A DNA stretch of 47,750 nt from Tubiluchus corallicola (GCA_030141605.1 JAQGDQ010001315.1:1-47750); one strand, 5' to 3'. Counted from the first letter of the stretch, positions 6,014 through 47,750 are shown. Notes: generated by a model not told the origin, from the letters alone. Program-made: numbers and translations.

Positions 6014-6028
6014 ACATTTTGTTGTCTA

Positions 6029-7373: not shown

Positions 7374-7460
7374 CGTGTAGTTATTGACATGCTCAGTTCC
7401 AATAATTTTCACTGTTTGCCCAATATCAACTCCTTGCGGTGCTGGAACAAAGCTTGCCAT
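7374..7460 (-). CDS. NISCH: Nischarin-like PX-domain gene, coding exon 1 (MASFVPAPQGVDIGQTVKIIGTEHVNNYT)
   Basis: ATG at 7460, 87 nt (29 codons), ends at phase-0 donor ACG|gtaaat. KIIGTEHVNNYT resembles the human NISCH N-terminus as I recall it (RVVGSELVDTYT) and joins in frame to the next exon. Confidence 0.85.
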
Positions 7461-12098: not shown

Positions 12099-14185
12099 TT
12101 GAAAACACAGGAGCAATTACATATCTGTAAAATGAGTAAATGAAATATAAACTGTAGTGACAACTTTGTTTTATTAAAATAATTACATACTGTGAATGTA
12201 GGGCATATTGACTTTCATGCACTGACTTTAGTATTTCCATTATTCTAGTATTAACTACTTCAGGACCATAGGCATTTGCTGCATTTTGCATAGGTTCATT
12301 ACGATGGATTTTCATGCAAAATTATACATGAAATGCACTTTCTTGCCTAAACAAATTGAAAATCGACTTTTGAGGAAAAAATTGGTAAAAAGCTTTCAGT
12401 TACTGCAATGTGCAGTATCACTTTGTTGGAAATCGGGTAATGCAGAAAATTTCACTTATCCGGAAACAGAACACTCTGATACACTTCGGCCTCAAGTCTA
12501 CTCTACGTTTAAGGAGAAATTTCTGATAAAAGATAAAATTTTGTCTTTAGCTAATCGGTTGGTTTTTCAGCTTGAACTCTGTACAGCTGATAGTTCTCTA
12601 GGGCTGTAGTAAGCAGGCGATCAACAAAACAGTGTGTTCAATCGATCATGCAAGTGTACACCAGCCTAAATAGCTACTGAATAGGTAACTTTGAGTGCTT
12701 GAAAAGGGTGCATTTTCTTAATTGTATCACTTGTTTTTCTTAATTTTATCCAATTAAATCACTTATAAATGTTTAAACAAATAGCATGATTGGATAGCCG
12801 AGCTTCTCTTGAATAGCACAGTACCAAATTTGTAATCATTAAGTTATTTTCGTGCTCGCACAGTAGCAGAAAAGTCATAGGTCTTACAAGACCTATTCTG
12901 AATGGTGTGATCCTGCTTTAGTTTTGAACGGGTTATTTTTTATTTTTGTTTAGCTCCGATAAACTAATATTAATGAAGATATGTCTTGAGTATACAAGTC
13001 AAAGTCTTATTTTTGGTACTTTGATTAATCTCCCACATGTTTTGGTTTTTTGGCTACAAATTTGGTTGTTACCAATAGCTTATTTTAAACCTCAACTGTG
13101 CTAACACGATCATGCACTGTGTGTTTGTATTGTTCTTCTTGTTGTATGGTCATATGTCTAATTATGAGTGCTAGAATATTCATTCATGTTGTTCTGAATA
13201 ATTAGCAATTCTTTTAACAGCAGGTATCTATCAGGCGAAACAATCACAAATCAGTTTGCAAATGACACCTCATCATAAGAGCAATTTATCAGACCTTCCT
13301 CCTAATATCTTTGTTGAGCTAAATAAAAAAGCTTAACTCCTGGTTTTTTCCGGAATCAACACCTAACCACCTGAATTTTGTATTTTGCAGAATAAAAATA
13401 ATTTATTTGTTTGCCTTGCAAACAAATACAAAAAACTATAATTATAGCAATATTCAACAATATTTAAAGAAGAACAGGAGGGTAAAAGACCAAAATGGTT
13501 ATATGGTCTGCCATCCCTAAGGGGACCATCCTTAAGAAGAAGGCAGTTTTCCACAAGGCAGTTTAACTAATGGTCCCTCGTAATTTTTTAACTATACCCT
13601 ATGCTTAGTCTATATACTAATGCACACTATTCCTAATAATTATTAAATAAAATCCTCACTTAAAATTACACACTAATCATAAATGAACAAATTATCATCA
13701 TCATCATTATCATCATCATAATTTGCCATGCCTATTAGGATATACAGAATTCTAAAATGAAAGAAATTTGCAATACATGTAACCGCAGCAGTTAATCCAA
13801 CAAATTCAACTAGATACTATTATGCCAGTGGCTTATCAGCACCACATCCGAGCGATTACCGAAATATTACTTCAATTCTTCATTTCTGTAGTCACATATC
13901 CTCTGACATGATTCTTGCAATCACTTTAAGCAATGTCTAATGGTGTGTTGATAAGATCTTTTTGAATGAAATTAATGTAAGTCAGCAACTGTCTTTCTTG
14001 CGGTTTCTTTTCCTACTTCAGTGTTTCCTTGAAAACTAATTATATCAACCTGTCGTCTGGTAGTCGTATAACAAGACACGTCCTTCCTAATTTTGTCTTT
14101 TACCAGATTGGCGTCTATTTCTTATTGCGTTATTTTTTCTTCTATTTAAATATTTACATGAGCTACACACATCAACATCATAGCG

Positions 14186-18692: not shown

Positions 18693-19685
18693 CTTTGCCA
18701 CCAAGATGTGTGAAATCTGTAAAACAAACTAATAATGATCACTGATTCTCTTGCAAAAAGATGTCACGAACTTAAATTTCGTTTTCAGTTGATTCTGTTT
18801 TCCAACAATGGATGTATGTTAAGAATAAAAGCAATTGATGTAATGTGGTCTTACAAGTAGACAGCAGCCTCATGGTACTTTAAGAATAGGGGTGTAGCCG
18901 TTTCTAAAGCTCGGGGGAGCAAGTGCAAAAAAGGCATGAAGACACATGAAGCAATTATTTTTTAATTTTCTATACCACAACAGACAGTATCTGTGTGAGA
19001 AGAAGATATAATAGTAATTAGATGTGGAACAATTTGATAGTTGGTTCAATTAAACAACCTTGACAAATGAGTAGCATAAATGCATGGCCATTTTAGAAAT
19101 ACGGAGGCAGGTTGGTTGAATGAAGTAACAATTCAATTCTTCCAAGACCGAGGCGAATAATAAAGGGTTCACTTTTATCGCACAAATAAGCTAAAGAGTA
19201 AAAAAAATTGTTAAAAGTTGCCATTTTTGAAAAATGTGCTCAAGGGAGGGACTGTTCTCTTTGCTATCCTAACTAAAAAGGTTAACTGGCGTAGAAAAAT
19301 TGTATGATAACAACGATGACATATTTGCTGTGTAACAAATATGTAACCTGCCAAAGTTTCAGTTTTCTTAACAAATAAAATGATGCCAGCCACTGTAGCC
19401 ACATGACTACTTAAGTGTAACTTATGACTAAAAAACTTACTTTTCACATTTTTTAACAATATTCTTAAATAGTGAATTTTAATTAAGTTCTTATTTACCG
19501 TTCTATGGTACTTTTATGTACTAAAATAAATGTGATATAAAGTGGATAAAAATAATAGCTTTTAGTGATTCTGACGTTCATATCGTCTTATTTCATTAAG
19601 TCAGTAATTTCTCCGACGATTCTAGATCAAAGTTTAAATGATTCTTGGGCCAGTCTCTGCTCCTTCCTGGTCAGTACATGCATAA

Positions 19686-25406: not shown

Positions 25407-25580
25407 TGTTAGCAAAGAGAATCATTGCTTTGTTAGTTAGCAGTAAATCAGATAGCCAGACATGGGCCAAACATTCAAATCTACGTTAAGTAGTGTTAGC
25501 AAAGAGAATCATTGCTTTGTTAGTTAGCAGTAAATCAGATAGCCAGACATGGGCCAAACATTCAAATCTACGTTAAGTAG
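25407..25580 (+). repeat. Perfect 87-bp tandem duplication at the 5' end of the ORF1 fragment
   Basis: TGTTAGCAAAGAGAATC...CTACGTTAAGTAG at 25407 and 25494. Confidence 0.92.
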
Positions 25581-26277
25581 CAAAGTCTCGAAAATTGACC
25601 AGGAATTGGATGCCATATCAAAATCACAGGAAGTTATTTCAGACATGTTTGATGGTTTTAAATCTGAGCTTGATGCAGCCAATCAAGACATTGCCAGACT
25701 TAAAACAGAAAACAACTCGCTTAAAGCAACAGTTAGCAAGCTACAAAAACAGGCACAGACAAATGCAATTGAGATCGACAAACTTGATCAGTACAGTCGT
25801 CGAGACTGCCTTGAAATATCAGGAATTCCGGTAATTGAACATGAAAATACAAATGCAATAGTTCTTAGTGTTGCCCGCAATATGGGAACTGCATTATCAC
25901 CAGAAGAAATTAGTATCTCCCACAGGCTCCCTAAGCCAAGAAAGGGTTACCCTAAAATTATTGCGAAATTTACCCAACGTGACAAACATGATGCAATGTT
26001 CAGAGAGAGAAAGAAAGCAGGGAACACATCGACCTTGGATTATTCTCGCTATACAGACAGTAAAATCTACATTAGTGAATCACTGACACAGAGACGACGT
26101 GAACTCTTTCGGATAGCGCTCAACTACAAAAAGCAACACAACTTTGCACACATTTGGACTGTCAACGGCAGGATTTTTCTGCGAGCCCATGATAATAGCC
26201 AGAAACTTACGATAGATTGTGTGTTAATGACCGTATGGTACACGAAAACACGTGGAAATGAAAGAATTGCAGGTTAG
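25549..26277 (+). mobile_element. LINE ORF1p fragment (CR1/L2/Crack type; coiled coil, RRM and FP25K-like C-terminal domain), with no ORF2 following
   Basis: Coiled coil, then LDQYSRRDCLEISGIP, ISISHRL, PKIIAKF, IYISESLT..RRELF, IWTVNGRIFLR. The last ~20 codons look unrelated. Confidence 0.85.
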
Positions 26278-26421: not shown

Positions 26422-26637
<216 letters not shown>

Positions 26638-27740
26638 TTTAAAATCTTTATTAATAAAACCTCTATTTGCAGGTACAAAATTAGCATAAGTATAAATTTT
26701 ACAAATTTTCTAATAAAATAATAAAGTAAGGTAATTCTAGGCACAGTGTAAATTACTAATTAAAATTACAAAGATAGCAATAGTACAACCGCTAGTTTAG
26801 TAACACGTAGCATAATTCTCCTGACATTTGCTGTCTAATGAAGTCATCCTTAATTACTTCAACAAATGATCTCAAAGTGCTGCTATCATTTTGCTTTTGA
26901 ATTAACACAGGAATATTAGTGGTGTTAATGTTATTCTTAAAAAAACATGCGCTTTTGTGAGCCTACGAAAGGGCAGTCGAAAAGTAGATGTTCGCAAGTT
27001 TGAGAAAGACCACATAAACAAGAATTGTCAGGTATGAGTCCTAATCGGAATAAAAAATGTTTAAAAAATCCTTGTCCATGAATAATACTTAGAGCAATGG
27101 ATTCAAACTCTCTATATGTAGGTGAAATTGGTAAATTAAAGGGCTTGAGCTGTGGGATTATGCCAAACCATTCATTTCTGTTTTCTAACAAAGTATAAGT
27201 ATTGAATTGTCTGTGCCAAAGAGTTTGCTTGAATTTATCCAGATCAGATTTTGTTACAGACTAATTATCTACAGAAAGTTCTTCGTTGTTAATTCGCCCT
27301 GCATCTCTAGTAGTAGCTAATAATTGCCTTAAATCTCTAGCATAATATTTTACAAAGTGGTTATATGACAGATAAAAGTTAGTATTAAATACATACAAAA
27401 GTTCTTTCTTAACCAGATCACCATCACCACTCTGCAATATTTTACTTAGGAATCTTACATTATGAGCTTTCATTTCGATTTCTAAAGGAGGCAAACCACA
27501 TAAAATTTCTAACAATACCCTGCAAGGTTTAAAGGATGAACCCGTTGCAGTTCTGAGGACATCATAATGCAAGTCATCAAATAATGAATGTTTTTAGCTA
27601 ACCAAACACTGGCACTGTATAGTATAACAGGTAGTACAAATGTTTTAAACAGTTGTATAATAGTTGCCATTCTCATTCCTCTGTATTTAAAACACAGTTG
27701 TTTAATTTGTGTCCATTTGTACCATGCATTTTTGTAACTC
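26638..27740 (-). mobile_element. 5'-truncated LINE 3' end with a C-terminal CCHC zinc knuckle (I/R1/Ingi-like group)
   Basis: FKTFVLPVILYSASVW, VLRTATG..LEILCGLPPLEI, HGQGFFKHFLFRLGL...CLCG..QTCEHLLFDCP, then a 3' UTR ending AATAAAGATTTTAAA directly into (TC)n. Confidence 0.8.
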
Positions 27741-28368
27741 GCCGCATTATAAGAGTAAAATAATTGGTATAGTGGTGGCGTTAAAGTCTGTTTATTATAG
27801 TGGTTAAAGCTGCTTGCTGATTATTGTTGTTTATTGTGTGGCGTGTGAGGTAGCCACGATGGGCATGGCGAACTATCAAGACTTTATTTAAGAAACTACA
27901 CATTTATTAAATATCAAACACAACACGGTAAATATAAGAGGATAGTGATGTCAGCCCTCCGTGTTGAAGTCGTAATAAGATAAAAATGCTAAACTGCCAG
28001 GTGCCAGGTTGAGGTCACTGAAAAACTGTTTAGTTTTGAACAAGGTGAGTTACCGAACTCAAGTCAGTGTAAACAATCATGTTTGATTCAGCAAAAACAA
28101 TGACTGTTTACAATATGAATAGCAATTAGCTGATTAAATTTTCTCAGCAGACAATAAAAACTTAAACACCTATAAAAACGTCACCGAAAATTGTTGTTTT
28201 TCACACACAGGAAATTGTTGAAATTCAAAATCAGACAGGATGTGTAAACATTCTCAGAGTTATTTATGCCAGTTTACAACAAATTTGCTGACATTGCTTC
28301 TAACACTAAATACCAGACATTTCAAAAAACTGCGATATAGAATTAATTTGGGTCGAACCTGTTATTAA

Positions 28369-30978: not shown

Positions 30979-31420
30979 GCTACCATGAGCATAAGTTCCA
31001 AAGCGACATGAACTAAAAAGTATTTACAAAAAAAAAGGAGACAGACAGTTAAAACTGCTGGTTTTCAAAGTGTTAAATTTGATAGAGAATCATTAAATTG
31101 ACAGATAAAGTGATCTGCGGCCAATTTGTAGAAGTTTATGATAGCTGTCAGTTGCAGCTGCCAAATGAGTGATACATCAGGCTTCCCATCTGAAAGCTCT
31201 CCAGCTTGCGCCTCCGCTTGCCTTCCAGTAAGACGTCTTGCGCAAAACCATGAGAAAGAATGATAAGAGATGAACTAGTTAAGTTAAGTTAAATTTATTT
31301 ATTTCTACTCTGCATCTGACAATTATAATAAAAATACAGATAATTTCACTGAAGCAAATATAAATATATATGCAATATTATCCTGAAATTACAACATTTT
31401 TAATTCTCCCTTCTTTTGTA

Positions 31421-31464
31421 GAGAGAGAGAGAGAGAGTGAAAGAGAGAGAGAGAGAGAGAGAGT

Positions 31465-31513
<49 letters not shown>

Positions 31514-31587
31514 CAAGAGAGTCAGTGAGGAAGAGAGAAAGAGAGAGGGAGAGAGTAAGAGAGAGAGAAAGACATAGAGAAACAGAA

Positions 31588-31630
<43 letters not shown>

Positions 31631-31631
31631 A

Positions 31632-31669
<38 letters not shown>

Positions 31670-31716
31670 CGAGGGAGAGAAAAAGAGGGAGAGAGAGAGA
31701 GAGAAAGAGAGAGAGA
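31421..31716. repeat. Degenerate (GA)n purine-rich microsatellite
   Basis: GA repeat with GAAA and GGGA interruptions. Confidence 0.95.
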
Positions 31717-33010
31717 TCGTATCGAAGACTGATACATACATGTCTCACATTACTGTACACGAAGATTTAGTGAAAACACTATTAAATAACGTCAATACGA
31801 GCAAATCTGTAGGTCCTGATGGAATAAGCAACAAAGTACTTAAGCTTTGTGCAGATTCATTATCAAGCCCATTAACCCGATTGTTTAACTTCTCATTACA
31901 GTCAGGTCATTTTCCTAGCTTGTTGCAAATGTCTGCCCCATACACAAAGGGGGAGATAGACAGCTTGTTTCGAACTACAGACCCGTGGCGCTACTTTCAT
32001 GTATGTCCAAGATTCTAGAACGCGTTGTCTTTAATCAGATGTATAACTACTTTGCTATTGATAATAACTTTTTGACGGAAAAGAACTCGGGGTTCAAATC
32101 AAACGATAGCACCATCAACCAGCTAGTTTCAATCGTTCACAATTTGTATACAAGTTTAGACGACGGTGCTGAAATCTGTAGCGTTTTTCTGGACATCAGT
32201 AAAGCTTTTGATAAGGTGTGGCATGTAGGCTTGATATTCAAATGAAAGCAGTATGGAGTAGGTGGCCAAGTTCTGTCTTGGCTATCATCTTACCTTCGAA
32301 ACCGAACACAAAGAGTAACGAACACAAAGGCAGATCTCAGAATAATTGAAAACTAGGCCAAACGTTGGATGGTTAAATTTAATCCTAATAAGACCGAAGT
32401 CATGCTTTTCTCCCGTAAATCCAATGCTCCTCAATATCCTACTCTGTATTTATCTAATACTCCACTGAAAACTGTAAATGTTCACAAACATTTAGGTATT
32501 GATCTTACATCTGACCTGAACTGGAACTATCACGTCTCAAAAATGGTAGACAAAGCAAATCTAAAGCTAAACAACTTTCGACGTGTGTCAGTTAATAGTT
32601 AATCCCAGAGCTACGCGGGAACGATTATTCATTACGGCTATTCTCCCTGCCATCGAATATGGTAACGTAGTATGGTCAGGATGCAGTGAATACAGTATAC
32701 GTTTGTTAGAAAATATTCAGCTAACTGCTGCTAGAATCTGTTCTGGCGCTATGTTTCGATCTTCCCCTGCAAGTATCTTGTCTGACAGCGGCTTCACTAA
32801 ATTAGTGACACGCTTTCATTATCATCGCCTATGTCTTTTTTACAAAATAATCAATGACTTAGTGCCCCACTATTTAAGTGCAATTCTGCCGCCAAAGGTT
32901 AACGAAGTTACCCCCTATTATATACGCAGTGGTACTAAATACAGAAATTTTAATTGCCGTTCTGTTAGCTGTGAAAAATCGTTTTTCATATCGACCATTA
33001 ACATTCTCGT
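31717..33010 (+). mobile_element. Degenerate CR1/L2-type LINE ORF2 with frameshifts and an internal deletion
   Basis: KSVGPDGI, NYRPVALLS, FLDISKAFDKVWH, VKFNPNKTE, HKHLGI, LENIQL.AARI. The PQGS/ADD core appears deleted near 32330. Confidence 0.85.
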
Positions 33011-35250
33011 GTGATTATTCTGATCATGATTTTATAATAATAGTAGACAAAACAAAACCAACCAAAAACAATACAGGCACAGTCTGGAAAACAGTCAGAG
33101 ATTATTCTACATATAATAAAGATATATTTCAAGATACTTTAACCAAATTGGACTGGAGTAATATTTACACAATGACTGACATTGACATGCAAATAAACAC
33201 ATTAATAAATAATATGGAATACTGCCTGGATATCTATGCACCGTATAAAAAAATTAAAATACATCAGCAGCAATTTAATGCAAAATCTGCCTGCCCTTGG
33301 GCGGATACAGAATTCGCAAAACTAAGACACAATAAAAATGAATTATATAGAACATATTTACATTTAAAAGGTAAAATCAATTACAATAATTACAAAAAGG
33401 CACGAAATAAATTTAATAGCTACAACAGGAAACTCAAAAATAAATATTATATTAATAAATGCAATGATGCAACTACACCTAAACAAAAATGGCATTTAAT
33501 TAATGACGTACTTAACAGATACAGAAACGATCAATTACAAATAAATAGTTTACGAGAAAATGACAGTATAATATCTGATCCAGTTGACATTGCTAACAAA
33601 TTAAATTCCACATTTATCAATCTTGGAAAATTTGACAACTTGCCACACCAACATAATGCAAATATACACAATATATACAAAAACCAATCAGTAATACAAT
33701 CCACTTTCTCATTTACTAGCGTCACAGAATACGACATCTTTAGAATATTAAACAGTTTAAATATAAATAAAGGAAGTGGACCCTCAGACATGCCAATAAA
33801 GATCTTAAAAGACTGTGCCAGCATCATTACTCCTCATCTAACATATATCACAAACCAAGTCTTAATGCGCTCAGAATTTCCAGCAGTGTGTAAACAAGCA
33901 AACATAACTCCAATATACAAGAAAGATGCTAAAGATGATGCTAAAAACTACAGACCAATCTCAGTAGTGCACGTACTAGCCAAAGTATTTGAAAGAGTTA
34001 TCTACAACCAAATAAACCATTACATTGAAAATAATAAGTTACTGTCAAATCATCAATTTGGTTTTAGAAAACTACATTCTACAATAGACGCGATAATTGA
34101 TGCCACTGAAAAGTGGCGTTACAACTTAAATAAAAATAAATATATAACAGCAGCATTTTTAGATCTAAGTAAAGCTTTTGACAGCCTCGATCACAATTTA
34201 CTACTAGACAACTTACGCCAACTAGGATTCGATTATACTTCTCTCAAACTAATTAATAATTACCTACACAATAGAAAACAAAGAGTCAAACTGAACAAAC
34301 ACACTTTTTCAGCATGGGACACACCACAGAGAGGCATCCCACAAGGTACGATATTAGGTCCATTACTCTTTTGTTTATACGTTAATAAAATTCATTTAGT
34401 TTTACATAATTCAGACTTAACACAATATGCCGATGATACAACACTCTATACAGCACACGCAGACTTTCTAACATCAAAAAATAATCTAGAAAAAGACATA
34501 ACAAATATAAATGCAGCATTTAACTATTTTGGTTTAAAAATGAATGATGATAAGACAGAATTTATGGTAATATCACCCAAATCCAATGACATTACTTCTA
34601 ATGCAACACTAAAAGTAGGTGACTGTTCCATAGAACAAGCAAAAACTGTAAAATTTTTAGGCATTACTGTCGACAATAAACTCACTTGGGATGAACAGTT
34701 TCATCAAATACACAACAAGATGGCATTAAGCACGACATTCTTACGCCAAACCAGAGGCCATCTAACCAAGAAAACAAAAATTCTCATCTACAAAAGTCTA
34801 ATATTACCACATTATCTATATGGTTGCACTTTACTTCAAAACGTTAAATATGAAAACTTTAGAAAACTAAATACAATGCAAAACTACGCACTTAGATTAA
34901 TTCATGGCTACTCTAACAAAACTGCTAAACAACATGCTGCTTCTGCAACAAGCTTAAGAACGTCCACAAAAATACCAATATTAGAAGCCTATCGAGATTA
35001 CAAAACACTGATATTTCTTTATAAATATATAAATAAACTGAGCATTCCATTTATAAACAATCCCTTAGCATTTATTCCTGATACCACATTGAACACTAGA
35101 ACATACAATTTAAAGCAAATTACAGTAAACAATAAATTTGGAAATAACTCTATATATCAAAACAGGCCATACATTTATGGAACTTACTACCCAGTGAAAT
35201 AAAACAAATAGAATCTCTCCACCACTTTAAAAAGAAATTAAAAGAATATC
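33011..35250 (+). mobile_element. Young 5'-truncated L2/Crack/Daphne-type LINE ORF2 (endonuclease C-terminus plus near-intact RT)
   Basis: DYSDHDFI (end of APE domain), NYRPIS, NHQFGFRK, FLDLSKAFDSLDH, GIPQGTILGPLLF, QYADDTT, KFLGI. A frameshift near 35160 continues as LWNLLP.EIK...FKKKLKEY. Confidence 0.92.
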
Positions 35251-35295: not shown

Positions 35296-35900
35296 ACACC
35301 ACACCATACCACTGCAGCACACCACACCACCCACACCATACGACTCCACCACATCACACCACACTGCACCACACCATACCACTGCACCACACCGCACCAC
35401 CCACACACCACACCACACCATACCACTCCACCAGACTGCACCACACAATACCACTGCACCACCCACACACCACACCACCCACACCATAATACTCCACCAC
35501 ATCACACCGCACAGCACCACACCATAACACCACACTGCACCACACCACCCACCCCATACCACTCCACCACATCACACCACACCATACCACTGCAGCACAC
35601 CGCACCACCCACACACACACCACCCACACCATGCGACTCCACCACATCACACCACACTGCACCACACCATACCACTGCACCACACCGCACCACCCACACA
35701 CCACACCACCCACACCATAATACTCCACCACATCACACCGCACTGCACCACACCATAACACCACACTGCACCACAACACCCACCCACACACCACGCCACC
35801 CACTCCATACCACACTACCCACACCACAACCCACACACCCTATCACCCCACCACACCATCCATAGCACAACACACAAAGCACACCACCACCACACCACAT
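35296..35900. repeat. Complex (CACCA)n microsatellite block 1
   Basis: CACCA-based, with recurring ACCATACCACTCCACCACATCACACC and CACTGCACC variants. Confidence 0.95.
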
Positions 35901-36865
35901 CAAATCCACCACCTCACGTGGTGATCATGATGTTGATGATGATGATGATGATGGTGGTGGCAACGATGACGACACCTATAGCACAAGCACCAACAGCACA
36001 GCATTACAACAAAACCATTCCAAACATTTTTCACAAAGTTGAAACTATGTGCTATAATATAATAAATAGCAAAGGCCCCGCAAAAGATTTTGCGTAAAAA
36101 ACCACGTATAATCAATAATACGCGAACATCCTACCTAGTCCACATTTATAACGCAAAGCCCGTAACATCATGCCTACTGTTTGTTTAACTAACGCAAACC
36201 CGTAGCAGGCAGCTTTTTGCTGAATTAAAGTTATAAGATTACAGCAGAGTACAATGGATGACGTCACAACAATGCCTTTGCGTCAACAGTTTTCTAAGCG
36301 AAAATTGCCGAAAATAGAACATCTAATTAACTCGCCAATACTCCTCTCGGTGGACTTGCCCTAAAATATAACCCACACCATCGTGTAGCCCTGTCCTTCC
36401 TCTTTGTAAAGAGCCCCATATCTCCTTCCTAGAGTGCCACCGGGAGACGCTAGAACGTTTTTTCCAAAGGCTATTTAGTCAAAATTTCGAAAAAAATCGC
36501 GAGTTGGGTCCGGGAAAACGCCCGTTACGGGACGCCGTGGCCCTCTCGCGAATTCTAAATAGGCCTATGACACCCATCGCTGAACCCGTTCCCGTTCTCT
36601 ACATCTCAGCCGTATAACTTTTGCAAAAAAACAGCCGAAAAATGGCCATTTTTGGAGGTTTTTTGCCGCCCGTTCCTCCCGGTGGGCCCGATTCGAAAAA
36701 TAAACCATCAATGAGATGACACTAGATCGAGACCTTTCGTTTGATATATAGATCGCCGCAAATGGTGCCCTCGTCTGGGCTGTAGCCTCGAATCTTATAT
36801 ATATACCAAGAATATTAATATAATAGACTAGCCAAACCCCACAAAAAGAATTTTGTGCACAAATC

Positions 36866-37692
36866 AACACACAACCCACACCACACCACTCCACCTCATC
36901 ACACCACACTGCACCACACCATACCACTCCACCTCATTGCACCACACAATACCACCACACCGCACCACACCATACCACCTACACACCACACCACCCACAC
37001 CATACCACTCCACCACATCACACCACACTGCACCACACCATACCACTGCACCACCCACACACCACACCACACCACCGACACCATAATACTCCACCACATC
37101 ACACCGCACAGCACCACACCATAACACCACACTGCACCACACCACCCACCCACCTACACACCACACCATACCACTCCACCACATCACACCGCACCGCACC
37201 ATACCACTGCAGCACACCGCACCACCCACACACCACACCACACCACCCACACCATACGACTCCACCACATCACACCACACCGCACCACACCGTACCACTG
37301 CACCACACCACACCGCACCACCCACGCACCACACCACACCACCCACACCATAATACTCCGCACTGGACCACACCATAACACCACACTGCACCACACCACA
37401 CCACCCACACCATACCACTCCACCACATCACACCGCACCACACCATACCACTCCACCTCATCGCACTACACTGCACCACACAATGCCACCACACCGCACC
37501 ACCCACACACCACACCACACCACCCACACCACCCACACCATAATACTCCACCACATCACACCGCACTGCACCACAACAGCCACCCACACACCACGCCACC
37601 CACTCCATACCACACTACTCACACCACACCCTATTACCCCACCACACCATCCATAGCACAACACACAAAGCACAGCACCACCACACCACATC
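36866..37692. repeat. Complex (CACCA)n microsatellite block 2
   Basis: Same motifs as block 1, longer. Confidence 0.95.
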
Positions 37693-38989
37693 AAATCCAC
37701 CACCTCACGTGGTGATCATGTTGATGATGATGATGATGGTGGCAACGATGACGACACCTATAGCACAAGCACCAACAGCACAGCATTACAACAAAACCAT
37801 TCCAAACATTTTTCACAAAGTTGAAACTATGTGCTATAATATAATAAATAGCAAAGGCCCCGCAAAAGATTTTGCGTAAAAAACCACGTATAATCAATAA
37901 CACGCGAACATTCTACCTAGTCCTCATTTTTAATACAAAGCCCGTGCAGCTTTTACTGAATTACAGCAGCGTAGCAGCTTTTTGCTGAATTAAAGCTATA
38001 AGATTATAGACAGAATACAATGGATGACGTCAGAACAATGGTTTTGCGTGAGCAGTTTTCTAAGTGAAAATTGCGAAAAATAGAACCTCTAATTAACTCG
38101 TCGGTGCTCCTCTTGGTGGACCTGCCCTAACATATAGCCCACATCATCGTGTAGCCCTGTCCTTCCTCTTTGTAAAAAGCTATATATCTCCTTCCGAGAA
38201 TCCCACCAGGCGCCGCTAGAACGTTTTTTCCGCAGGCCGTTTGGTCAAAATTTCGAAAAAATCGCGAGTTGGGTCCGGGAAAACGCCCGTTGCGGGGCGC
38301 CCTGGCCCTCTCGCGAATTCTAAATATGCCTACTACACCCACCGCTGAACGGGCTATCTATCCATACCCAGCACCCCCCTCGGCCTGTTCCCGTTCTCTA
38401 CATCTCAGCCGTATAACTTTTGCAAAAAACGGCCGAAAAAGGGCCATTTTTGGAGGTTTTTCGCCTCCCGTTCCTCCCGGTGGGCCCGATTCGAAAAATA
38501 AACCATCAATGAGAAGACACTAGATCGAGACCTTTCGTTTGATATATAGATCGCCGCAAATGGTGCCGTCGTCGAAGCTGTAGCCTCAAATCTTATATAT
38601 ATATAAAGCCCATACCAAGAATATTAATATAAGAGTATAGATATAGATATATATTAAGATACCAAGAATATTAGTATAAGAGATATTAATATTGAAAAGT
38701 CAGAAGAATTCTGTTTTAATTTGGTTAATTTAATTTAATGATAATACTAATAATAGTAATATAAATTGCAAATCAGAATTTTCTTTCGGATAAATTTTGT
38801 GGCCCTGAAAAGGGCCGGTTGGTTATATTTAAGGGCCTGTAGCACCGTTCTTCCTCTTTCTGATGAGCCATATATCTCCTTCCGAGAGTCCCACCAGGCG
38901 CCGCTAGAACATTTTTCCGCAGGCTGTTTGGTCAAAATTTCGAAAAAATGTTCGTAAGCAGTGGTGGTTCTCGATGATTCATATGAAGT

Positions 38990-39597
38990 TCAGTTGAAGA
39001 AATTGTACACGCAGTTGGATCCACGTCGTCTGTTTTGAATAGGATGTATATTTTGCTGTTGTGGTAATTGTTGCTGTTGTTGTAATAGTTGTTGCTGTTG
39101 TTGTAATTGTTGTTGTTACTGTTGTTGTATGCGTGAAATGCTTTCAAGTTGTGTTTGCACATGTGCCATGAAATGTCCAAGAATTTGTTGTTGTTGTTGT
39201 TGATGTTCCTGTTCCTGTCCTTGTTCCTGTCCTTGTTCTTGTCCTTGTTCCTGTCCTTGTTCCTGTCCTTGTTCCTGTCCTTGTTCCTTGTCAATTGGAT
39301 TCAACTGCAATTTTTCCATTTTCTGTAACATAGACATATTTTGTTAAAAAAACAAAGATTTTTCAAACAATATGGAAAATTATTCTTCATTTCATTTTAT
39401 GCATAACATAACATGTATGAAACCAAACATGTTATTCAGAAAACTTTAGACTTAAATAGTTTTAGATATTTTGATAATAAATGCTAATGTAAATTAATAT
39501 AAGAGAAATTTATTACCTTCGAAATACTGTTTTTTCCTCCGAAGACAAGACAAAGATAAAGAATGCCAAAAAATAATAATGTCAATGTGAAACGCAT
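38990..39597 (-). pseudogene. Secreted polyQ gene copy A1 (exons 39597-39517 and 39322-38990) with a premature stop
   Basis: Same structure as A2, but CAA>TAA at 39116-39118, an expanded (GQEQ)n tract, and an in-frame 33-nt shorter NRRR region. Confidence 0.7.
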
Positions 39598-40181
39598 CTT
39601 GTGATTGTTTATTAGACTTGTGAAGCAAAAATTGCCAAAAATAGAACATCTAATTAACATTTACAGTCTGTGCGTTAGGTAAGTGCTGAAAGTTTGGCGG
39701 CTACAGATTTTTATAGCTCGCCAGGGATTAAAGACGAGTGAATTGTTACATTGCGGACGTTAGAGTACACGTCTTAATTGTTCTTGTTACGCGGAAGTTA
39801 GAGTATTTTTTTTTGAAATTTTGACCGAAATTGAACGATATTATTTGATTGAATATTAACCACTAAACGGTTAAAACTGAGTTTTATTTGACATATGCAA
39901 TGTGTATATTATTGTTATGAAGGAAACAAAAATAAAAAATATTGTGTTTGAATTAATGTTTAAAATTAAATTTTAATAATTAGGAGACAGTTGAATTTGC
40001 AAAATCAGAATTTTTGTTCGGATAAATTTTGTGGCCCTGAAAAGGACCGGTTGGTTATTTTATGCAGATCTCTATGCAGAAGTGGTGTATTTCCTGTTGG
40101 TTATTTTATGCAGATCTCTATGCAGAAGTGGTGTATTTCGTCGTGGTGCTCTCACTGACAGCGTACTGGTGTTTGGATTCC

Positions 40182-40394
40182 TCATTGTGAGTTATAGAAA
40201 TTGTAAATTATACAATTGTTCCCTCTGGTTGGGCGCCGTCTTTGTGGAAAGTATGGCCGTTGTCTGTATTGTCTGTTTCTGCGATTTATTTTTTGCTGTT
40301 GTTGTAATTGTTGCCGTTGCTGTTGCTGTATGTGTAAAATTCGTTCAAGTTGTGTTTGCACGTGTGCCATGAATTGTCCAAGAATTTGTTGTTG
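40182..40394 (-). pseudogene. Diverged paralog B1 of the polyQ gene, probably a pseudogene
   Basis: QQQILGQFMAHVQTQLERILHIQQ...YRQRPY...GNNCIIYNFYNSQ*. Two in-frame TAA codons lie upstream and no signal exon was found. Confidence 0.6.
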
Positions 40395-41133
40395 GTGTTA
40401 TTGTTGTTAATTATTATCATTTTTCGCAGTTACTATTTTCTTGTTTTTCGCGCCAAATCAAAGCCGTACTGCATTTTGGCTATATATAACTTGTGTATGA
40501 GTTCTCAGCTTACAGTATATAGAGGCAAATAATGGCCAATACGTTCAAAACGATATTATTTGATTGAATATTAACCACTAAACGGTTAAAACTAAGTTTT
40601 ATTTGACATATGCAATGTGTATATTATTGTTATGAAGGAAAGAAAAATAAAAAATATTGTTTGAATTTTAAATTTTAATAATTAGGGGAGAGTTGTTCAA
40701 TGGCACGACACTAGATCGAGACCTTTCGTTTGATGTATAGATCGCCGCAAATGGTGCCCTCGTCGGGGCTGTAGCCTCGAATCTTATATATAAATATATA
40801 TATTAAGATACCAGCGAAATTAATATAAGAGATATTAATATTGAAAAGTCAGAAGAATTCTGTTTTAATTTTGTTTTTTAAATTTAATTTAAATTAATTT
40901 AATAAATTGCAAATCAGAATTTTCTTTCGGATAAATTTTGTGGCCCTGAAAAGGGCCGGTTGGTTATATTTAAGGGCATGTAGCCCCGTTCTTCCTCTTT
41001 CTGATGAGCCATATATCTCCTTCCGAGAGTCCCACCAGGCACCGCTAGAAGGTTTTTTCCGCAGGCTGTTTGGTCAAAATTTCGAAAAAATGTTCGGAAG
41101 CAGAAGTGGTTCCATCATATCATCATGATATCA

Positions 41134-41737
41134 TCAGTTGAAGAAATTGTACACGCAGTTGGATCCGCGTCGTCTGTTGTTGTATGGGCGTTGTCTATAT
41201 CGTCGTCTGTTTTGTCTGGGATGTATATTTTGCTGTTGTGGTAATTGTTGCTGTTGTTGTAATAGTTGTTGCTGTTGTTGTAATTGTTGTTGTTGCTGTT
41301 GTTGTATGCGTGAAATGCGTTCAAGTTGTGTTTGCATATGTGCCATGAATTGTCCAAGAATTTGTTGTTGGTGTTGTTGTTGTTGATGTTGTTCCTGTTC
41401 CTGTCCTTGTTCGTGTCCTTGTTGCTGTTCAATTGGATTCAACTGCAATTTTTCCATTTTCTGTAACATAGACACATTTTTGTTAAAAAAACAAAGATTT
41501 TTCAAACAATATGGAAAAATTATTCTTCATTTCATTTTATGCATAACATAACATGTATGAAACCAAACATGTTATTCAGAAAACTTTAGACTTAAATAGT
41601 TTTAGATATTTTGATAATAAATGCTAATGTAAATTAATATAAGAGAAATTTATTACCTTCGAAATACTGTTTTTTCCTCCGAAGACAAGACAAAGATAAA
41701 GAATGCCAAAAAATAATAATGTCAATGTGAAACGCAT
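41134..41737 (-). CDS. Putative secreted polyQ/Arg-rich protein, copy A2 (135 aa; exons 41737-41657 and 41460-41134)
   Basis: Exon 1 MRFTLTLLFFGILYLCLVFGGKNSISK is signal-peptide-like. AAG|gtaata donor, 196-nt intron, tatgttacag acceptor, phase-0 join to KMEKLQLNPIEQQQ...NRRRGSNCVYNFFN*. Confidence 0.72.
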
Positions 41738-41821
41738 CTTGTGATTGTTTATTAGACTTGTGAAGCAAAAATTGCCAAAAATAGAACATCTAATTAACAT
41801 CTACAGTCTGTGCGTTAGGTA

Positions 41822-41855
41822 AGTGCTGAAAGTTTGGCGGCTACAGATTTTTATA
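41822..41855 (-). promoter_or_regulatory. TATA box plus Inr-like element upstream of gene A (TATA also at 39708-39715, 43987-43994, 46126-46133)
   Basis: Minus strand TATAAAAATCTGTAGCCGCCAAACTTTCAGCAC. The TATA begins 28 nt before the A of TCAGC (41827). Confidence 0.55.
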
Positions 41856-42321
41856 GCTCGCCAGGGATTAAAGACGAGTGAATTGTTACATTGCGGACGT
41901 TAGAGTACACGTCTTAATTGTTCTTGTTACGCGGAAGTTAGAGTATTTTTTTTTGAAATTTTGACCGAAATTGAACGATATTATTTGATTGAATATTAAC
42001 CACTAAACGGTTAAAACTGAGTTTTATTTGACATATGCAATGTGTATATTATTGTTATGAAGGAAACAAAAATAAAAAATATTGTGTTTGAATTAATGTT
42101 TAAAATTAAATTTTAATAATTAGGAGACAGTTGAATTTGCAAAATCAGAATTTTTGTTCGGATAAATTTTGTGGCCCTGAAAAGGACCGGTTGGTTATTT
42201 TATGCAGATCTCTATGCAGAAGTGGTGTATTTCCTGTTGGTTATTTTATGCAGATCTCTATGCAGAAGTGGTGTATTTCGTCGTGGTGCTCTCACTGACA
42301 GCGTACTGGTGTTTGGATTCC

Positions 42322-42534
42322 TCATTGTGAGTTATAGAAATTGTAAATTATACAATTGTTCCCTCTGGTTGGGCGCCGTCTTTGTGGAAAGTATGGCCGT
42401 TGTCTGTATTGTCTGTTTCTGCGATTTATTTTTTGCTGTTGTTGTAATTGTTGCCGTTGCTGTTGCTGTATGTGTAAAATTCGTTCAAGTTGTGTTTGCA
42501 CGTGTGCCATGAATTGTCCAAGAATTTGTTGTTG
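42322..42534 (-). pseudogene. Paralog B2
   Basis: Same as B1. Confidence 0.6.
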
Positions 42535-43273
42535 GTGTTATTGTTGTTAATTATTATCATTTTTCGCAGTTACTATTTTCTTGTTTTTCGCACCAAATCA
42601 AAGCCGTACTGCATTTTGGCTATATATAACTTGTGTATGAGTTCTCAGCTTACAGTATATAGAGGCAAATAATGGCCAATACGTTCAAAACGATATTATT
42701 TGATTGAATATTAACCACTAAACGGTTAAAACTAAGTTTTATTTGACATATGCAATGTGTATATTATTGTTATGAAGGAAAGAAAAATAAAAAATATTGT
42801 TTGAATTTTAAATTTTAATAATTAGGGGAGAGTTGTTCAATGGCACGACACTAGATCGAGACCTTTCGTTTGATGTATAGATCGCCGCAAATGGTGCCCT
42901 CGTCGGGGCTGTAGCCTCGAATCTTATATATAAATATATATATTAAGATACCAGCGAAATTAATATAAGAGATATTAATATTGAAAAGTCAGAAGAATTC
43001 TGTTTTAATTTTGTTTTTTAAATTTAATTTAAATTAATTTAATAAATTGCAAATCAGAATTTTCTTTCGGATAAATTTTGTGGCCCTGAAAAGGGCCGGT
43101 TGGTTATATTTAAGGGCATGTAGCCCCGTTCTTCCTCTTTCTGATGAGCCATATATCTCCTTCCGAGAGTCCCACCAGGCACCGCTAGAAGGTTTTTTCC
43201 GCAGGCTGTTTGGTCAAAATTTCGAAAAAATGTTCGGAAGCAGAAGTGGTTCCATCATATCATCATGATATCA

Positions 43274-43876
43274 TCAGTTGAAGAAATTGTACACGCAGTT
43301 GGATCCGCGTCGTCTGTTGTTGTATGGGCGTTGTCTATATCGTCGTCTGTTTTGTCTGGGATGTATATTTTGCTGTTGTGGTAATTGTTGCTGTTGTTGT
43401 AATAGTTGTTGCTGTTGTTGTAATTGTTGTTGTTGCTGTTGTTGTATGCGTGAAATGCGTTCAAGTTGTGTTTGCATATGTGCCATGAATTGTCCAAGAA
43501 TTTGTTGTTGGTGTTGTTGTTGTTGATGTTGTTCCTGTTCCTGTCCTTGTTCGTGTCCTTGTTGCTGTTCAATTGGATTCAACTGCAATTTTTCCATTTT
43601 CTGTAACATAGACACATTTTTGTTAAAAAAATAAAGATTTTTCAAACAATATGGAAAATTATTCTTCATTTCATTTTATGCATAACATAACATGTATGAA
43701 ACCAAACATGTTATTCAGAAAACTTTAGACTTAAATAGTTTTAGATATTTTGATAATAAATGCTAATGTAAATTAATATAAGAGAAATTTATTACCTTCG
43801 AAATACTGTTTTTTCCTCCGAAGACAAGACAAAGATAAAGAATGCCAAAAAATAATAATGTCAATGTGAAACGCAT
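43274..43876 (-). CDS. Putative secreted polyQ/Arg-rich protein, copy A3 (135 aa; exons 43876-43796 and 43600-43274)
   Basis: Same exons, splice sites and open frame as A2. Confidence 0.72.
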
Positions 43877-44454
43877 CTTGTGATTGTTTATTATACTTGT
43901 GAAGCAAAAATTGCCAAAAATAGAACATCTAATTAACATCTACAGTCTGTGCGTTAGGTAAGTGCTGAAAGTTTGGCGGCTACAGATTTTTATAGCTCGC
44001 CAGGGATTAAAGACGAGTGAATTGTTACATTGCGGACGTTAGCGTCTTAATTGTTCTTGTTACGCGGAAGTTAGAGTATTTTCTTTTGAAATTTTGACCG
44101 AAATTGAACGATATTATTTGATTGAATATTAACCACTAAACGGTTAAAACTGAGTTTTATTTGACATATGCAATGTGTATATTATTGTTATGAAGGAAAC
44201 AAAAATAAAAAATATTGTGTTTGAATTAATGTTTAAAATTAAATTTTAATAATTAGGAGACAGTTGAATTTGCAAAATCAGAATTTTCTTTCGGATAAAT
44301 TTTGTGGCCCTGAAAAGGGCCGGTTGGTTATTTTATGCAGATCTCTATGCAGAAGTGGTGTATTTCCGGTTGGTTATTTTATGCAGATCTCTATGCAGAA
44401 GTGGTGTATTTCGTCGTGGTGCTCTCACTGACAGCGTACTGGTGTTTGGATTCC

Positions 44455-44667
44455 TCATTGTGAGTTATAGAAATTGTAAATTATACAATTGTTCCCTCTG
44501 GTTGGGCGCCGTCTTTGTGGAAAGTATGGCCGTTGTCTGTATTGTCTGTTTCTGCGATTTATTTTTTGCTGTTGTTGTAATTGTTGCCGTTGCTGTTGCT
44601 GTATGTGTAAAATTCGTTCAAGTTGTGTTTGCACGTGTGCCATGAATTGTCCAAGAATTTGTTGTTG
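44455..44667 (-). pseudogene. Paralog B3
   Basis: Same as B1. Confidence 0.6.
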
Positions 44668-45400
44668 GTGTTATTGTTGTTAATTATTATCATTTTTCGC
44701 AGTTACTATTTTCTTGTTTTTCGCACCAAATCAAAGCCGTACTGCATTTTGGCTATATATAACTTGTGTATGAGTTCTCAGCTTACAGTATATAGAGGCA
44801 AATAATGGCCAATACGTTCAAAACGATATTATTTGATTGAATATTAACCACTAAACGGTTAAAGTTTTATTTGACATATGCAATGTGTATATTATTGTTA
44901 TGAAGGAAAGAAAAATAAAAAATATTGTTTGAATTTTAAATTTTAATAATTAGGGAGAGTTGTTCAATGGCACGACACTAGATCGAGACCTTTCGTTTGA
45001 TGTATAGATCGCCGCAAATGGTGCCCTCGTCGGGGCTGTAGCCTCGAATCTTATATATAAATATATATATTAAGATACCAGCGAAATTAATATAAGAGAT
45101 ATTAATATTGAAAAGTCAGAAGAATTCTGTTTTAATTTTGTTTTTTAAATTTAATTTAATTTAATTTAATAAATTGCAAATCAGAATTTTCTTTCGGATA
45201 AATTTTGTGGCCCTGAAAAGGGCCGGTTGGTTATATTTAAGGGCATGTAGCCCCGTTCTTCCTCTTTCTGATGAGCCATATATCTCCTTCCGAGAGTCCC
45301 ACCAGGCACCGCTAGAAGGTTTTTTCCGCAGGCTGTTTGGTCAAAATTTCGAAAAAATGTTCGGAAGCAGAAGTGGTTCCATCATATCATCATGATATCA

Positions 45401-46015
45401 TCAGTTGAAGAAATTGTACACGCAGTTGGATCCGCGTCGTCTGTTGTTGTATGGGCGTTGTATATATCGTCGTCTGTTTTGTCTGGGATGTATATTTTGC
45501 TGTTGTGGTAATTGTTGCTGTTGTTGTAATAGTTGTTGCTGTTGTTGTAATTGTTGTTGTTGCTGTTGTTGTATGCGTGAAATGCGTTCAAGTTGTGTTT
45601 GCATATGTGCCATGAATTGTCCAAGAATTTGTTGTTGGTGTTGTTGTTGTTGATGTTGTTCCTGTTCCTGTCCTTGTTCCTGTCCTTGTTCGTGTCCTTG
45701 TTGCTGTTCAATTGGATTCAACTGCAATTTTTCCATTTTCTGTAACATAGACACATTTTTGTTAAAAAAATAAAGATTTTTCAAACAATATGGAAAATTA
45801 TTCTTCATTTCATTTTATGCATAACATAACATGTATGAAACCAAACATGTTATTCAGAAAACTTTAGACTTAAATAGTTTTAGATATTTTGATAATAAAT
45901 GCTAATGTAAATTAATATAAGAGAAATTTATTACCTTCGAAATACTGTTTTTTCCTCCGAAGACAAGACAAAGATAAAGAATGCCAAAAAATAATAATGT
46001 CAATGTGAAACGCAT
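45401..46015 (-). CDS. Putative secreted polyQ/Arg-rich protein, copy A4 (139 aa; exons 46015-45935 and 45739-45401)
   Basis: Same structure, with an in-frame 12-nt insertion (extra GQEQ) and an R>I change (RYIQRPY). Confidence 0.72.
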
Positions 46016-46553
46016 CTTGTGATTGTTTATTATACTTGTGAAGCAAAAATTGCCAAAAATAGAACATCTAATTAACATCTACAGTCTGTGCGTTAGGTAA
46101 GTGCTGAAAGTTTGGCGGCTACAGATTTTTATAGCTCGCCAGGGATTAAAGACGAGTGAATTGTTACATTGCGGACGTTAGAGTACACGTCTTAATTGTT
46201 CTTGTTACGCGGAAGTTAGAGTATTTTCTTTTGAAATTTTGACCGAAATTGAACGATATTATTTGATTGAATATTAACCACTAAACGGTTAAAACTGAGT
46301 TTTATTTGACATATGCAATGTGTATATTATTGTTATGAAGGAAACAAAAATAAAAAATATTGTGTTTGAATTAATGTTTAAAATTAAATTTTAATAATTA
46401 GGAGACAGTTGAATTTGCAAAATCAGAATTTTCTTTCGGATAAATTTTGTGGCCCTGAAAAGGGCCGGTTGGTTATTTTATGCAGATCTCTATGCAGAAG
46501 TGGTGTATTTCGTCGTGGTGCTCTCACTGACAGCGTACTGGTGTTTGGATTCC

Positions 46554-46765
46554 TCATTGTGAGTTATAGAAATTGTAAATTATACAATTGTTCCCTCTGG
46601 TTGGGCGCCGTCTTTGTGGAAAGTATGGCCGTTGTCTGTATTGTCTGTTTCTGCGATTTATATTTTGCTGTTGTTGTAATTGTTGCCGTTGCTGTTGCTG
46701 TATGTGTAAATTCGTTCAAGTTGTGTTTGCACGTGTGCCATGAATTGTCCAAGAATTTGTTGTTG
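46554..46765 (-). pseudogene. Paralog B4 with an additional 1-nt frameshift
   Basis: gtgtaaattcg here versus gtgtaaaattcg in B1-B3 (near 46708). Confidence 0.6.
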
Positions 46766-47497
46766 GTGTGTTGTTAATTATTATCATTTTTCGCAGTTAC
46801 TATTTTCTTGTTTTTCACCAAATCAAAGCCGTACTGCATTTTGGCTATATATAACTTTTGTATGAGTTCTCAGCTTACAGTATATAGAGGCAAATAATGG
46901 CCAATACGTTCAAAACGATATTATTTGATTGAATATTAACCACTAAACGGTTAAAACTAAGTTTTATTTGACATATGCAATGTGTATATTATTGTTATGA
47001 AGGAAAGAAAAATAAAAAATATTGTTTGAATTTTAAATTTTAATAATTAGGGGAGAGTTGTTCAATGGCACGACACTAGATCGAGACCTTTCGTCTGATG
47101 TATAGATCGCTGCAAATGGTTCCCTCGTCGGAGCTGTAGCCTCGAATCTTATATATAAATAATATATATTAAGATACCAGCGAAATTAATATAAAGATAT
47201 TAATATTGAAAAGTCAGAAGAATTCTGTTTTAATTTTGTTTTTTAAATTTAATTTAAATTAATTTAATAATTGCAAATCAGAATTTTCTTTCGGATAAAT
47301 TTTGTGGCCCTGAAAAGGGCCGGTTGGTTATATTTAAGGGCATGTAGCCCCGTTCTTCCTCTTTCTGATGAGCCATATATCTCCTTCCGAGAGTCCCACC
47401 AGGCACCGCTAGAAGGTTTTTTCCGCAGGCTGTTTGGTCAAAATTTCGAAAAAATGTTCGGAAGCAGAAGTGGTTCCATCATATCATCATGATATCA

Positions 47498-47750
47498 TCA
47501 GTTGAAGAAATTGTACACGCAGTTGGATCCGCGTCGTCTGTTGTTGTATGGGCGTTGTATATATCGTCGTCTGTTTTGTCTGGGATGTATATTTTGCTGT
47601 TGTGGTAATTGTTGCTGTTGTTGTAATAGTTGTTGCTGTTGTTGTAATTGTTGTTGTTGCTGTTGTTGTATGCGTGAAATGCGTTCAAGTTGTGTTTGCA
47701 TATGTGCCATGAATTGTCCAAGAATTTGTTGTTGGTGTTGTTGTTGTTGA
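47498..47750 (-). CDS. Copy A5, 3' part of exon 2 (cut by the window edge)
   Basis: ...ILGQFMAHMQTQLERISRIQQ...GSNCVYNFFN*, matching A4. Confidence 0.65.
   Translation of the reverse strand, partial: QQQQHQQQILGQFMAHMQTQLERISRIQQQQQQQLQQQQQLLQQQQQLPQQQNIHPRQNRRRYIQRPYNNRRRGSNCVYNFFN

Follow-up and report, generated by a model that had tools for sequence, protein, structure and literature searches.

A canonical Helitron adjoining a tandem array of an orphan gene with histone-type 3' stem-loops in Tubiluchus corallicola

Introduction

Helitrons of the Helitron1 type, as far as the available parts of their descriptions go, begin with a 5' TC, end with a hairpin of 16-20 nucleotides, placed 10-12 nucleotides from the 3' terminus, and then CTRR, insert between A and T, and have no terminal inverted repeats (TIRs) (PMC4778049, PMC5148889, PMC12001565, PMC6544945); head-to-tail junctions and tandem arrays of such elements are already known (PMC5876387). 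Here we consider such an element in a 47,750-nucleotide (nt) stretch of DNA from Tubiluchus corallicola (GCA_030141605.1 JAQGDQ010001315.1:1-47750, 'the window' below), where it adjoins a tandem array of a small predicted gene whose copies are followed by a stem-loop of the kind that ends histone mRNAs.

That stem-loop is said to lie close to the stop codon (PMC6210712) and has been called unique to histone mRNAs (PMC2781718), which are described as the only known non-polyadenylated cellular mRNAs (PMC2781718, PMC4604434, PMC13525598) and, in animals, as intronless (PMC13525598). In human cells, the accessible portion of one study reports no expressed non-histone target of SLBP, and describes H2AX as yielding both stem-loop and polyadenylated forms (PMC4604434). 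No exception to the histone-only stem-loop appears in the portions available of PMC12441778 or of bioRxiv 10.64898/2026.06.11.731563. Titles and abstract openings gave no natural non-histone gene with a histone stem-loop; subscription journals, mostly, and supplements lay beyond that scope, and a precedent in print is possible.

A preliminary description of the locus had seen two types of unit, type I with CACCA repeats and type II with a gene, as two cargoes sharing one set of termini, and had proposed that a Helitron-like vehicle captured the gene and amplified it by rolling circles. So posed, the locus turns out to be mostly ordinary: a canonical Helitron adjoins a tandem gene array. Our best explanation as a whole, to which we assign a probability of about 0.6, combines this Helitron with an array amplified by recombination and with a stem-loop that would act as an SLBP-bound mRNA end signal.

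Results

The range analysed was 35296-47750 of the window, where a strict scan of both strands looked for a perfect stem of at least 6 pairs followed by CTRR, and where folds of candidate ends were compared with 200 shuffles each. Questions of dispersal and variation were put to Logan contigs of public runs (X1, X3, X4, X5 and X6); X1 and X3 come from the same sample, possibly the source of the window, and X4 and X5 from separate studies. Summed contig depth is used as a contrast only and does not equal copy number, and all joints, loose ends and paralog forms given below are those among the matches listed, the contigs being short (24,778 contigs of X1 aligned to the queried segments). A slash in a motif marks a junction.

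What the units share as termini belongs to a non-autonomous Helitron of canonical type, present at very high copy and read on the minus strand; its core, E1, runs for ~790 bp from 5'-TC to hairpin-CTAG-3'. A type-I unit is E1 plus a CACCA-repeat extension, E2, which has a related 3' end of its own, and the units meet head to tail at an exact CTAG/TC. We regard both statements as close to certain. The parts are as follows.

35296-36065, minus strand: truncated E2 copy (TGGTG/CACCA repeat) of unit I-1, outer hairpin-CTAG end missing; the E2 3'-end query matches in full only at 36828
36066-36827, minus strand: E1 copy I-1, 762 bp; 5' TC at 36827, hairpin and CTAT (decayed CTAG) at 36066
36822-36857, minus strand: true head-to-tail junction; hairpin 36857-36840, 8 nt, CTAG 36831-36828, directly joined to the TC of I-1 at 36827
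36828-37847, minus strand: E2, CACCA/TGGTG-repeat segment of ~1 kb, with its own related hairpin-CTAG 3' end and a 10-nt match to the E1 5' motif at its start
37848-38683, minus strand: E1 copy I-2; inner 5' end at ~38634, stacked second 5' end (A/TC) at 38683, hairpin and CTAT at 37848

The hairpin, 8 nt and CTAG at 36857-36828 form the sole such site that the strict scan found on either strand of 35296-47750, and provide the canonical end that the preliminary description had held to be absent, proposing a variant terminus or another element type. This hairpin, of 18 nt, stands 12 nt from the terminus and folds well beyond chance (z -2.66, with 1 of 200 shuffles as good). At the inner E1 ends (37848 and 36066) the hairpin has 16 nt and stands 13 nt from the terminus (z -2.03); both window copies read CTAT there, and read joints place CTAG in genomic E1 copies at the position of 37848. 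On the minus strand, a 5' TC stands at 36827 and at 38683, as well as on scraps of the element at 40832, 42972, 45099 and 47197, with A/TC at all five non-tandem 5' ends and one common flank for all of them; the stacked second 5' end on I-2 (38635-38683), where the array meets a full Helitron, has the same flank as every type-II junction. No TIR is present in E1, the best match between its terminal 60 nt being 3-7 bp and not terminal.

Part of what had been noticed at the sequence level stands. The recurrent junction reported at 36793, 38591, 40782, 42922, 45049 and 47147 is, in six of six cases, the T of the TCTTATAT motif (at 38591 the end is CTCAAA, not CTCGAA); the shared unit end is a 96-bp block 95% alike between I-1 and type II (E ~1e-38); two internal blocks, of 112 bp (83-90%) and 31-36 bp (94%), are common to both unit types far beyond chance; and the identification as a Helitron is borne out by hairpin, CTAG/TC and lack of TIR. 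The boundary and the strand had to be revised, the element lying on the minus strand with its 5' TC 34-92 bp to the right of those junctions, and the supposed plus-strand end folding no better than shuffles (z -0.32, 67/200). A plus-strand alternative, with an A/TCTTAT start and a CTAG near 36139, was rejected, as the scan finds no hairpin there and read joints put the ends elsewhere.

Whether the termini occur beyond this locus, a check that had been proposed, is answered for E1 by the public contigs: its termini are dispersed and at very high copy. In X1, all eight bins over the Helitron core (37804-38635) have depths of 0.64-2.44 million, compared with 2,950-8,700 in 10 of the 13 cargo bins (39260-40611), the other three being the A-scrap bin, the TTG-repeat bin and one bin at 207. 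The Helitron is thus hundreds of times deeper than the gene, and the same contrast is seen in X3 and X4; bin 37700-37803, at the E2 edge, is also of high depth, though partly skipped as repeat. Several contig joints from 38631-38635 to 37849 restore CTAG/TC, so that the E1 core must stand head to tail elsewhere without the CACCA part, and loose ends at 37849 run into mixed AT-rich DNA. The two E1 copies of the window match at only 671 of 740 aligned sites (90.7%) and so do not form a fresh concatemer. As for E2, the likeness of its start to the E1 5' motif, together with its own hairpin-CTAG end, suggests either a second Helitron or a read-through extension.

The Helitron body has a diverged relative in X5, where 504 of the 625 contigs that match 38116-38635 are less than 95% alike; the family is therefore not confined to this genome. 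The body had no match in the collections searched, viral scans and a prokaryote genome scan gave 0 matches each, and no frame of RepHel size is present among the 55 open reading frames of at least 100 amino acids (aa) in the window. One metagenome match to the terminus motif, 26 nt within unrelated prokaryote-like DNA with no further similarity, was set aside as chance.

To the right of the Helitron lie the type-II units, their lengths counted from the true 5' TC. In each, the leading 136 bp of a Helitron are followed by gene B (a truncated paralog) and gene A, and there are also two internal Helitron scraps, named A and B (UTR, untranslated region).

38684-40832, minus strand: type-II unit 1, 2149 bp; identity with the other units just 91.5% in the left third, gene A copy with a premature stop at 39118-39116
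40833-42972, minus strand: type-II unit 2, 2140 bp
42973-45099, minus strand: type-II unit 3, 2127 bp
45100-47197, minus strand: type-II unit 4, 2098 bp
47198-47750, minus strand: type-II unit 5, cut by the window end
40697-40832 (A/TC at 40832), 42837-42972, 44964-45099, 47062-47197, minus strand: 136-bp Helitron 5'-end scrap, in 4 of 4 complete units
40979-41091, 38838-38949, 43119-43231, 45246-45358, 47343-47455, minus strand: B scrap, internal Helitron piece of 112-113 bp in the gene A 3' UTR
41763-41798, 39623-39658, 43902-43937, 46041-46076, minus strand: A scrap, internal Helitron piece of 36 bp, within an insertion of ~80 bp in the predicted gene A 5' UTR

The internal blocks do not make one frame common to the two unit types, for their order on the minus strand is 5'-end, B, A in type I and 5'-end, A, B in type II. 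Type-II units end in ...TTAATA/TC, with a fold z of -0.62 and without any hairpin-CTRR in the scan, and hence have no Helitron 3' end. Instead of two cargoes in one vehicle, we see in type II a 136-bp 5' scrap with internal scraps out of order. Loose ends in the contigs at all four edges of the A and B scraps continue into the Helitron body.

Paralogs without the scraps are common in the reads. Three forms lack the A scrap; their X1 depths are 2040, 279 and 192, and the first of them recurs in X3 (89) and X4 (98). Window-form contigs, which contain the A scrap, have depths of ~430-470 in X1. A joint from 38832 to 38966 skips the B scrap (2039 in X1, 85.5 in X3), gene B has no B scrap, and a tandem joint from 42851 to 40821 keeps just 12 bp of the Helitron 5' end (2008 in X1, 70 in X3) and seems to be the most frequent form there. 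The commonest paralogs are thus without A and B scraps and, in one sample, without most of the 5' scrap too. Within the window, units 2-4 are 99.2-99.6% alike beyond alignment column 800, and from column 782 on there are 25 variant events, of which 6 split units 1 and 2 from units 3 and 4, one more does so partly, and 18 are private. Unit 4 has 10 private changes. X5 gave no cover over most cargo bins, which proves nothing, and no type-II flank at a new A/T site was seen among the matches listed, all from short contigs.

The reading of the type-II unit as a Helitron vehicle, and with it Helitron capture followed by rolling-circle amplification of the gene, is not supported by these observations: the hairpin-CTRR end is missing, the scraps are scrambled, A and B are absent from the commoner paralogs, and variants are shared between neighbours.

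Three further observations on the units may be recorded. An inverted match of 19-22 bp to the Helitron B block, at 39807-39829 and 41947-41969, is a fourth such piece, and its host stretch seems specific to the window form (depth 223-289 against ~3,000 around it, X1). A TATA-like motif on the plus strand (40470-40510 and copies) stands at the gene B cut-off, facing a duplicated block of 160 bp. In the gene B 3' UTR, a 46-bp duplication (40050-40139 and copies) is present in units 1-3 and single in unit 4, changing the distance from stop to stem from 87 to 133 nt.

The genes carried by the units are the following.

41134-41737, minus strand: gene A (predicted), 135 aa, Q-rich orphan; exon 1 41737-41657, GT-AG intron 41656-41461, exon 2 41460-41134
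43876-43274; 46015-45401 (139 aa); 39597-38990 (broken, unit 1), minus strand: further gene A copies
42322-42537, 40397-40182, and copies ending at 44455 and 46554, minus strand: gene B, 5'-truncated paralog of exon 2 without the signal exon

Gene A is predicted to be a secreted-type orphan gene of 135-139 aa with one intron. Its first exon, of 27 codons, encodes a hydrophobic, signal-like stretch (11-residue mean up to 2.75), and paralog variants of this exon leave both the ATG and the reading frame intact (+3 and -3 nt, derived by hand, and a 6-nt deletion; contigs). The predicted GT-AG intron has 194-196 nt in 4 of 4 copies and is 80% A+T at 41656-41461. For exon 2, no relative was found among 986 candidates (lengths of 59-189 aa only), no match in Pfam, no usable match in the Atlas and none among 1.84 billion representatives. 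We rejected an alternative, N-rich frame for exon 2, which opens behind a stop immediately past the splice acceptor and for which comparison of the paralogs gives 0 silent among 6 changed codons. Run X6, whose status as RNA is a guess, matches the B scrap only and is not evidence on expression.

Both genes are followed on their sense strand by a histone-type stem-loop, located with Rfam RF00032 (Histone3; gathering threshold 34 bits) and with a degenerate pattern of our own.

40916-40962 (stem 40957-40942), 38775-38821, 43056-43102, 45183-45229, 47280-47326, minus strand: histone-type mRNA 3' stem-loop and purine-rich downstream element behind gene A (RF00032, 39.7 bits, E 2.7e-8)
44280-44326, 46425-46471, minus strand: histone-type stem-loop behind gene B, above gathering (RF00032)
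40007-40053, 42147-42193, minus strand: histone-type stem-loop behind gene B, below gathering (32.4 bits; stem altered by a G-U change, downstream element by one change)

Seven of the nine copies score above gathering and two below, with nothing else in the window at that level; the degenerate pattern gave nine matches, all on the sense strand of the genes, and none in 100 shuffles. A purine-rich GAAAGAAAA follows the stem by ~12-20 nt in 7 of the 9 copies. The presence of a histone-type 3' end on an array of an orphan gene predicted to be spliced and of secreted type is real in the sequence. No histone-like frame was noticed, by eye, among 84 frames of at least 30 aa over 38600-42930.

From stop to stem, gene A has 173-176 nt, of which 133 are the B insert, leaving ~40 nt without it; gene B has 133 nt, or 87 in unit 4. 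Histone stem-loops usually stand within ~80 nt of the stop. Stem-loop, 5' flank and purine-rich element make up a 68-nt island in which the gene A and gene B paralogs agree at 88-93%, and the 70 nt beyond it are at shuffle level (55.7%, against a null mean of 53% and a 95th percentile of 58.7%); the coding tail is at 56.5%. At 42155-42156, the intact purine-rich form is the sole form among the matches listed (1658 of 1658 in X1, 52.8 of 52.8 in X4), and another paralog contig, seen in X1, X3 and X4, has the island ~70 nt behind the stop (joint from 42202 to 42284).

A further candidate for this hairpin, with its GGCCCT, was the end of a Helentron. We dropped it because its depth (12,235 in X1) is near that of the gene (~3,000) and far from that of the Helitron (>1 million), because no TIR partner for it was found, and because Rfam assigns it to Histone3.

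Outside the array, a frame of a long interspersed element (LINE) at 32878-35202 (plus strand, 774 aa, Pfam RVT_1, best relatives 29-39% identical) ends ~90 bp before the truncated CACCA array, and remnants of older, broken LINEs are present at 31641-33014 and 26937-27820. C2H2 zinc-finger frames occupy 10620-12116 (minus, 498 aa) and 16908-18728 (minus, 606 aa), the second checked against Pfam. Together with the LINE reverse transcriptase, these frames upstream of the array point to an animal-type genome. At 25543-26277 (plus), a frame of 244 aa, which has a coiled coil and matches Baculo_FP_2nd (E 2e-6) and which we take to resemble a retrotransposon ORF1, is followed by (GA)108. Long GA repeats are found at 26422-26637 and 31420-31716, and a 40-bp minisatellite at 3868-4614 (18.7 copies, 97%).

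Discussion

We think it probable that tandem duplication and unequal crossing-over amplified the gene array, and that the Helitron scraps travelled as passengers. Let us suppose that a Helitron inserted at an A/T site directly behind a small secreted-type gene. Duplication of the gene pair together with the first 136 bp of the Helitron would then have given a unit of ~2.1 kb, which might have grown stepwise, and one sub-lineage might later have gained two further Helitron scraps in its 5' and 3' UTR, probably as templated filler in break repair. The six of 25 variants that separate units 1 and 2 from units 3 and 4 would fit such stepwise duplication with unequal crossing-over. Several points weigh against this scenario. 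Three scraps of one Helitron family in a single 2-kb unit remain an unexplained coincidence, and at three sites the B scrap follows the family majority, not the neighbouring I-2. Among the matches listed for X4 the 5'-deleted tandem joint is missing, and a record there that goes beyond the point does so by 9 nt, too little to count as a bridge; the no-B joint may hide other letters; and that the no-A, no-B and 5'-deleted joints sit on the same molecules is suggested by their near-equal depths only. Moreover, the A/TC junction would look the same after recombination and after Rep-driven release between two direct 5' ends.

The latter route would have RepHel start at one Helitron 5' end, copy the gene pair and be released at the next direct-repeat 5' end, with the resulting circle rolled out as a concatemer and re-inserted. 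Release between tandem origins is known in geminiviruses. Here, an A/TC Helitron 5' end begins every type-II unit, and the near-identity of units 2-4 beyond column 800 would be expected; in the parts of the studies available, Helraiser strictly needs its left end only, bypasses its 3' end and forms circles (PMC4778049, PMC5876387), and a Helitron role has been proposed for the poplar KCS tandem array (PMC13253262). We nonetheless find this route unlikely. Type-II junctions have no hairpin-CTRR, whereas described circle junctions are CTAG/TC; Helraiser is reported to be immobile without its left end and to have its cleavage determinants in the terminal 40 bp (PMC4778049). The commonest tandem form of X1 and X3 keeps only 12 bp of that end, variants are common to neighbouring units, and read-through to the I-2 end would put a copy of E1 and of E2 into every unit, contrary to what is seen. 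An altogether different explanation, that assembly has over-expanded one or two real units into most of the array, strikes us as very improbable: the units are more than 99% alike, the window-form depth of ~430-470 is only 2-3x the 137-237 of the longest Helitron-copy contigs (X1), and 10 changes are private to unit 4, yet the reads hold variants that separate units 1 and 2 from 3 and 4 (for example at 42155-42156) as well as the tandem joint of the unit, and the left third of unit 1 diverges by 8.5%.

With amplification by recombination as our preferred reading of the array, the role of its stem-loop has to be considered. It may well serve the gene as an SLBP-bound mRNA end signal, for which we see about an even chance from the sequence; cleavage of the message would then take place behind the stem-loop, or there would be two forms of it, one ending at the stem-loop and one polyadenylated. 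A more ambitious proposal, which we put forward tentatively and with considerable doubt, is that an animal family of intron-bearing genes that encode secreted, Q-rich proteins took over the histone 3'-end pathway as a whole, with spliced, U7/SLBP-cut messages without poly(A), with histone-like tandem arrays, and with Helitron scraps between stop and stem-loop that would retune control in one sub-lineage.

The competing view is that of an inert relic, acquired from the 3' end of a histone gene or from some low-copy mobile element and homogenised by conversion within the array, behind a gene that would be spliced and polyadenylated at ATTAAA; we hold this to be possible, though somewhat short of probable. 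Several observations count for it and against a working signal. Gene A has a predicted intron, unlike the intronless stem-loop mRNAs of animals, and introns favour polyadenylation; ATTAAA occurs 37-61 nt behind the stem in all nine copies; the B insert displaces the stem to 173-176 nt from the stop; and in two gene B copies the stem-loop has decayed below threshold. The island is best conserved behind the 5'-truncated paralog, which could reflect gene conversion and not selection, and a codon test between genes A and B, small and weak, gave 3 silent changes in 7 changed codons. Nine X1 contigs hold the island with different downstream DNA (loose end 40911), so it occurs in other contexts, and non-histone matches to the stem-loop in human cells are, in the accessible part of one study, not expressed SLBP targets (PMC4604434). 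What speaks against a relic is the shape of the conserved piece: its limits are exactly those of the stem-loop with 5' flank and purine-rich element, it follows the stop codon of each paralog in sense orientation, and the adjoining 70 nt are unrelated. The intact purine-rich form stands alone at 42155-42156 among the matches listed in X1 and X4, and another paralog contig retains the island ~70 nt behind its stop in three runs.

If the stem-loop is indeed used, a spliced, endoplasmic reticulum-bound, non-histone message would be a natural exception to a histone-only signal, and it would become testable whether U7-type processing is compatible with splicing and works outside histone loci. Such a transcript would escape poly(A)-selected RNA-seq. 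The array itself offers natural variants of the stop-to-stem distance, of ~40, 70, 87, 133 or 175 nt.

Among known systems, the closest to the Helitron described here is Helitron1 (Helibat/Helraiser type; insect Hel1; Xenopus Heli1Xen1). As far as the available parts of its descriptions go (PMC4778049, PMC5876387, PMC12001565, PMC6544945), the likeness comprises a TC and TA-rich start, a hairpin of 16-20 nt ~12 nt from the CTAG terminus, A/TC, lack of TIR, head-to-tail CTAG/TC, short tandem arrays, and a decayed inner end extended to a new end; the E1 body differs in having no match in the collections searched, and the type-II unit is not such an element. Helentrons, Helitron2 and HINEs share internal simple repeats and tandem arrays with this locus, but theirs are asymmetric TIRs and T-rich insertion sites, according to the portion available of PMC5148889, whereas E1 has TC and CTAG ends and no such repeats. 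At the poplar KCS locus (PMC13253262, available in part), each tandem gene copy is likewise paired with Helitron sequence on the minus strand; there, however, a CTAG-ended Helitron accompanies each gene and Helitron action is proposed, while here a 5' scrap and two internal scraps accompany it and scrap-free copies are present in the reads. Replication-dependent histone genes, finally, resemble the array in the 16-nt stem-loop with its flanks, the purine-rich element ~15 nt on, the sense-strand position near the stop in the insert-free form, and the tandem arrangement. They differ from it in what the stem-loop follows, which here is an orphan Q-rich frame with a signal-like N-terminus and a predicted intron, in units without a histone frame.

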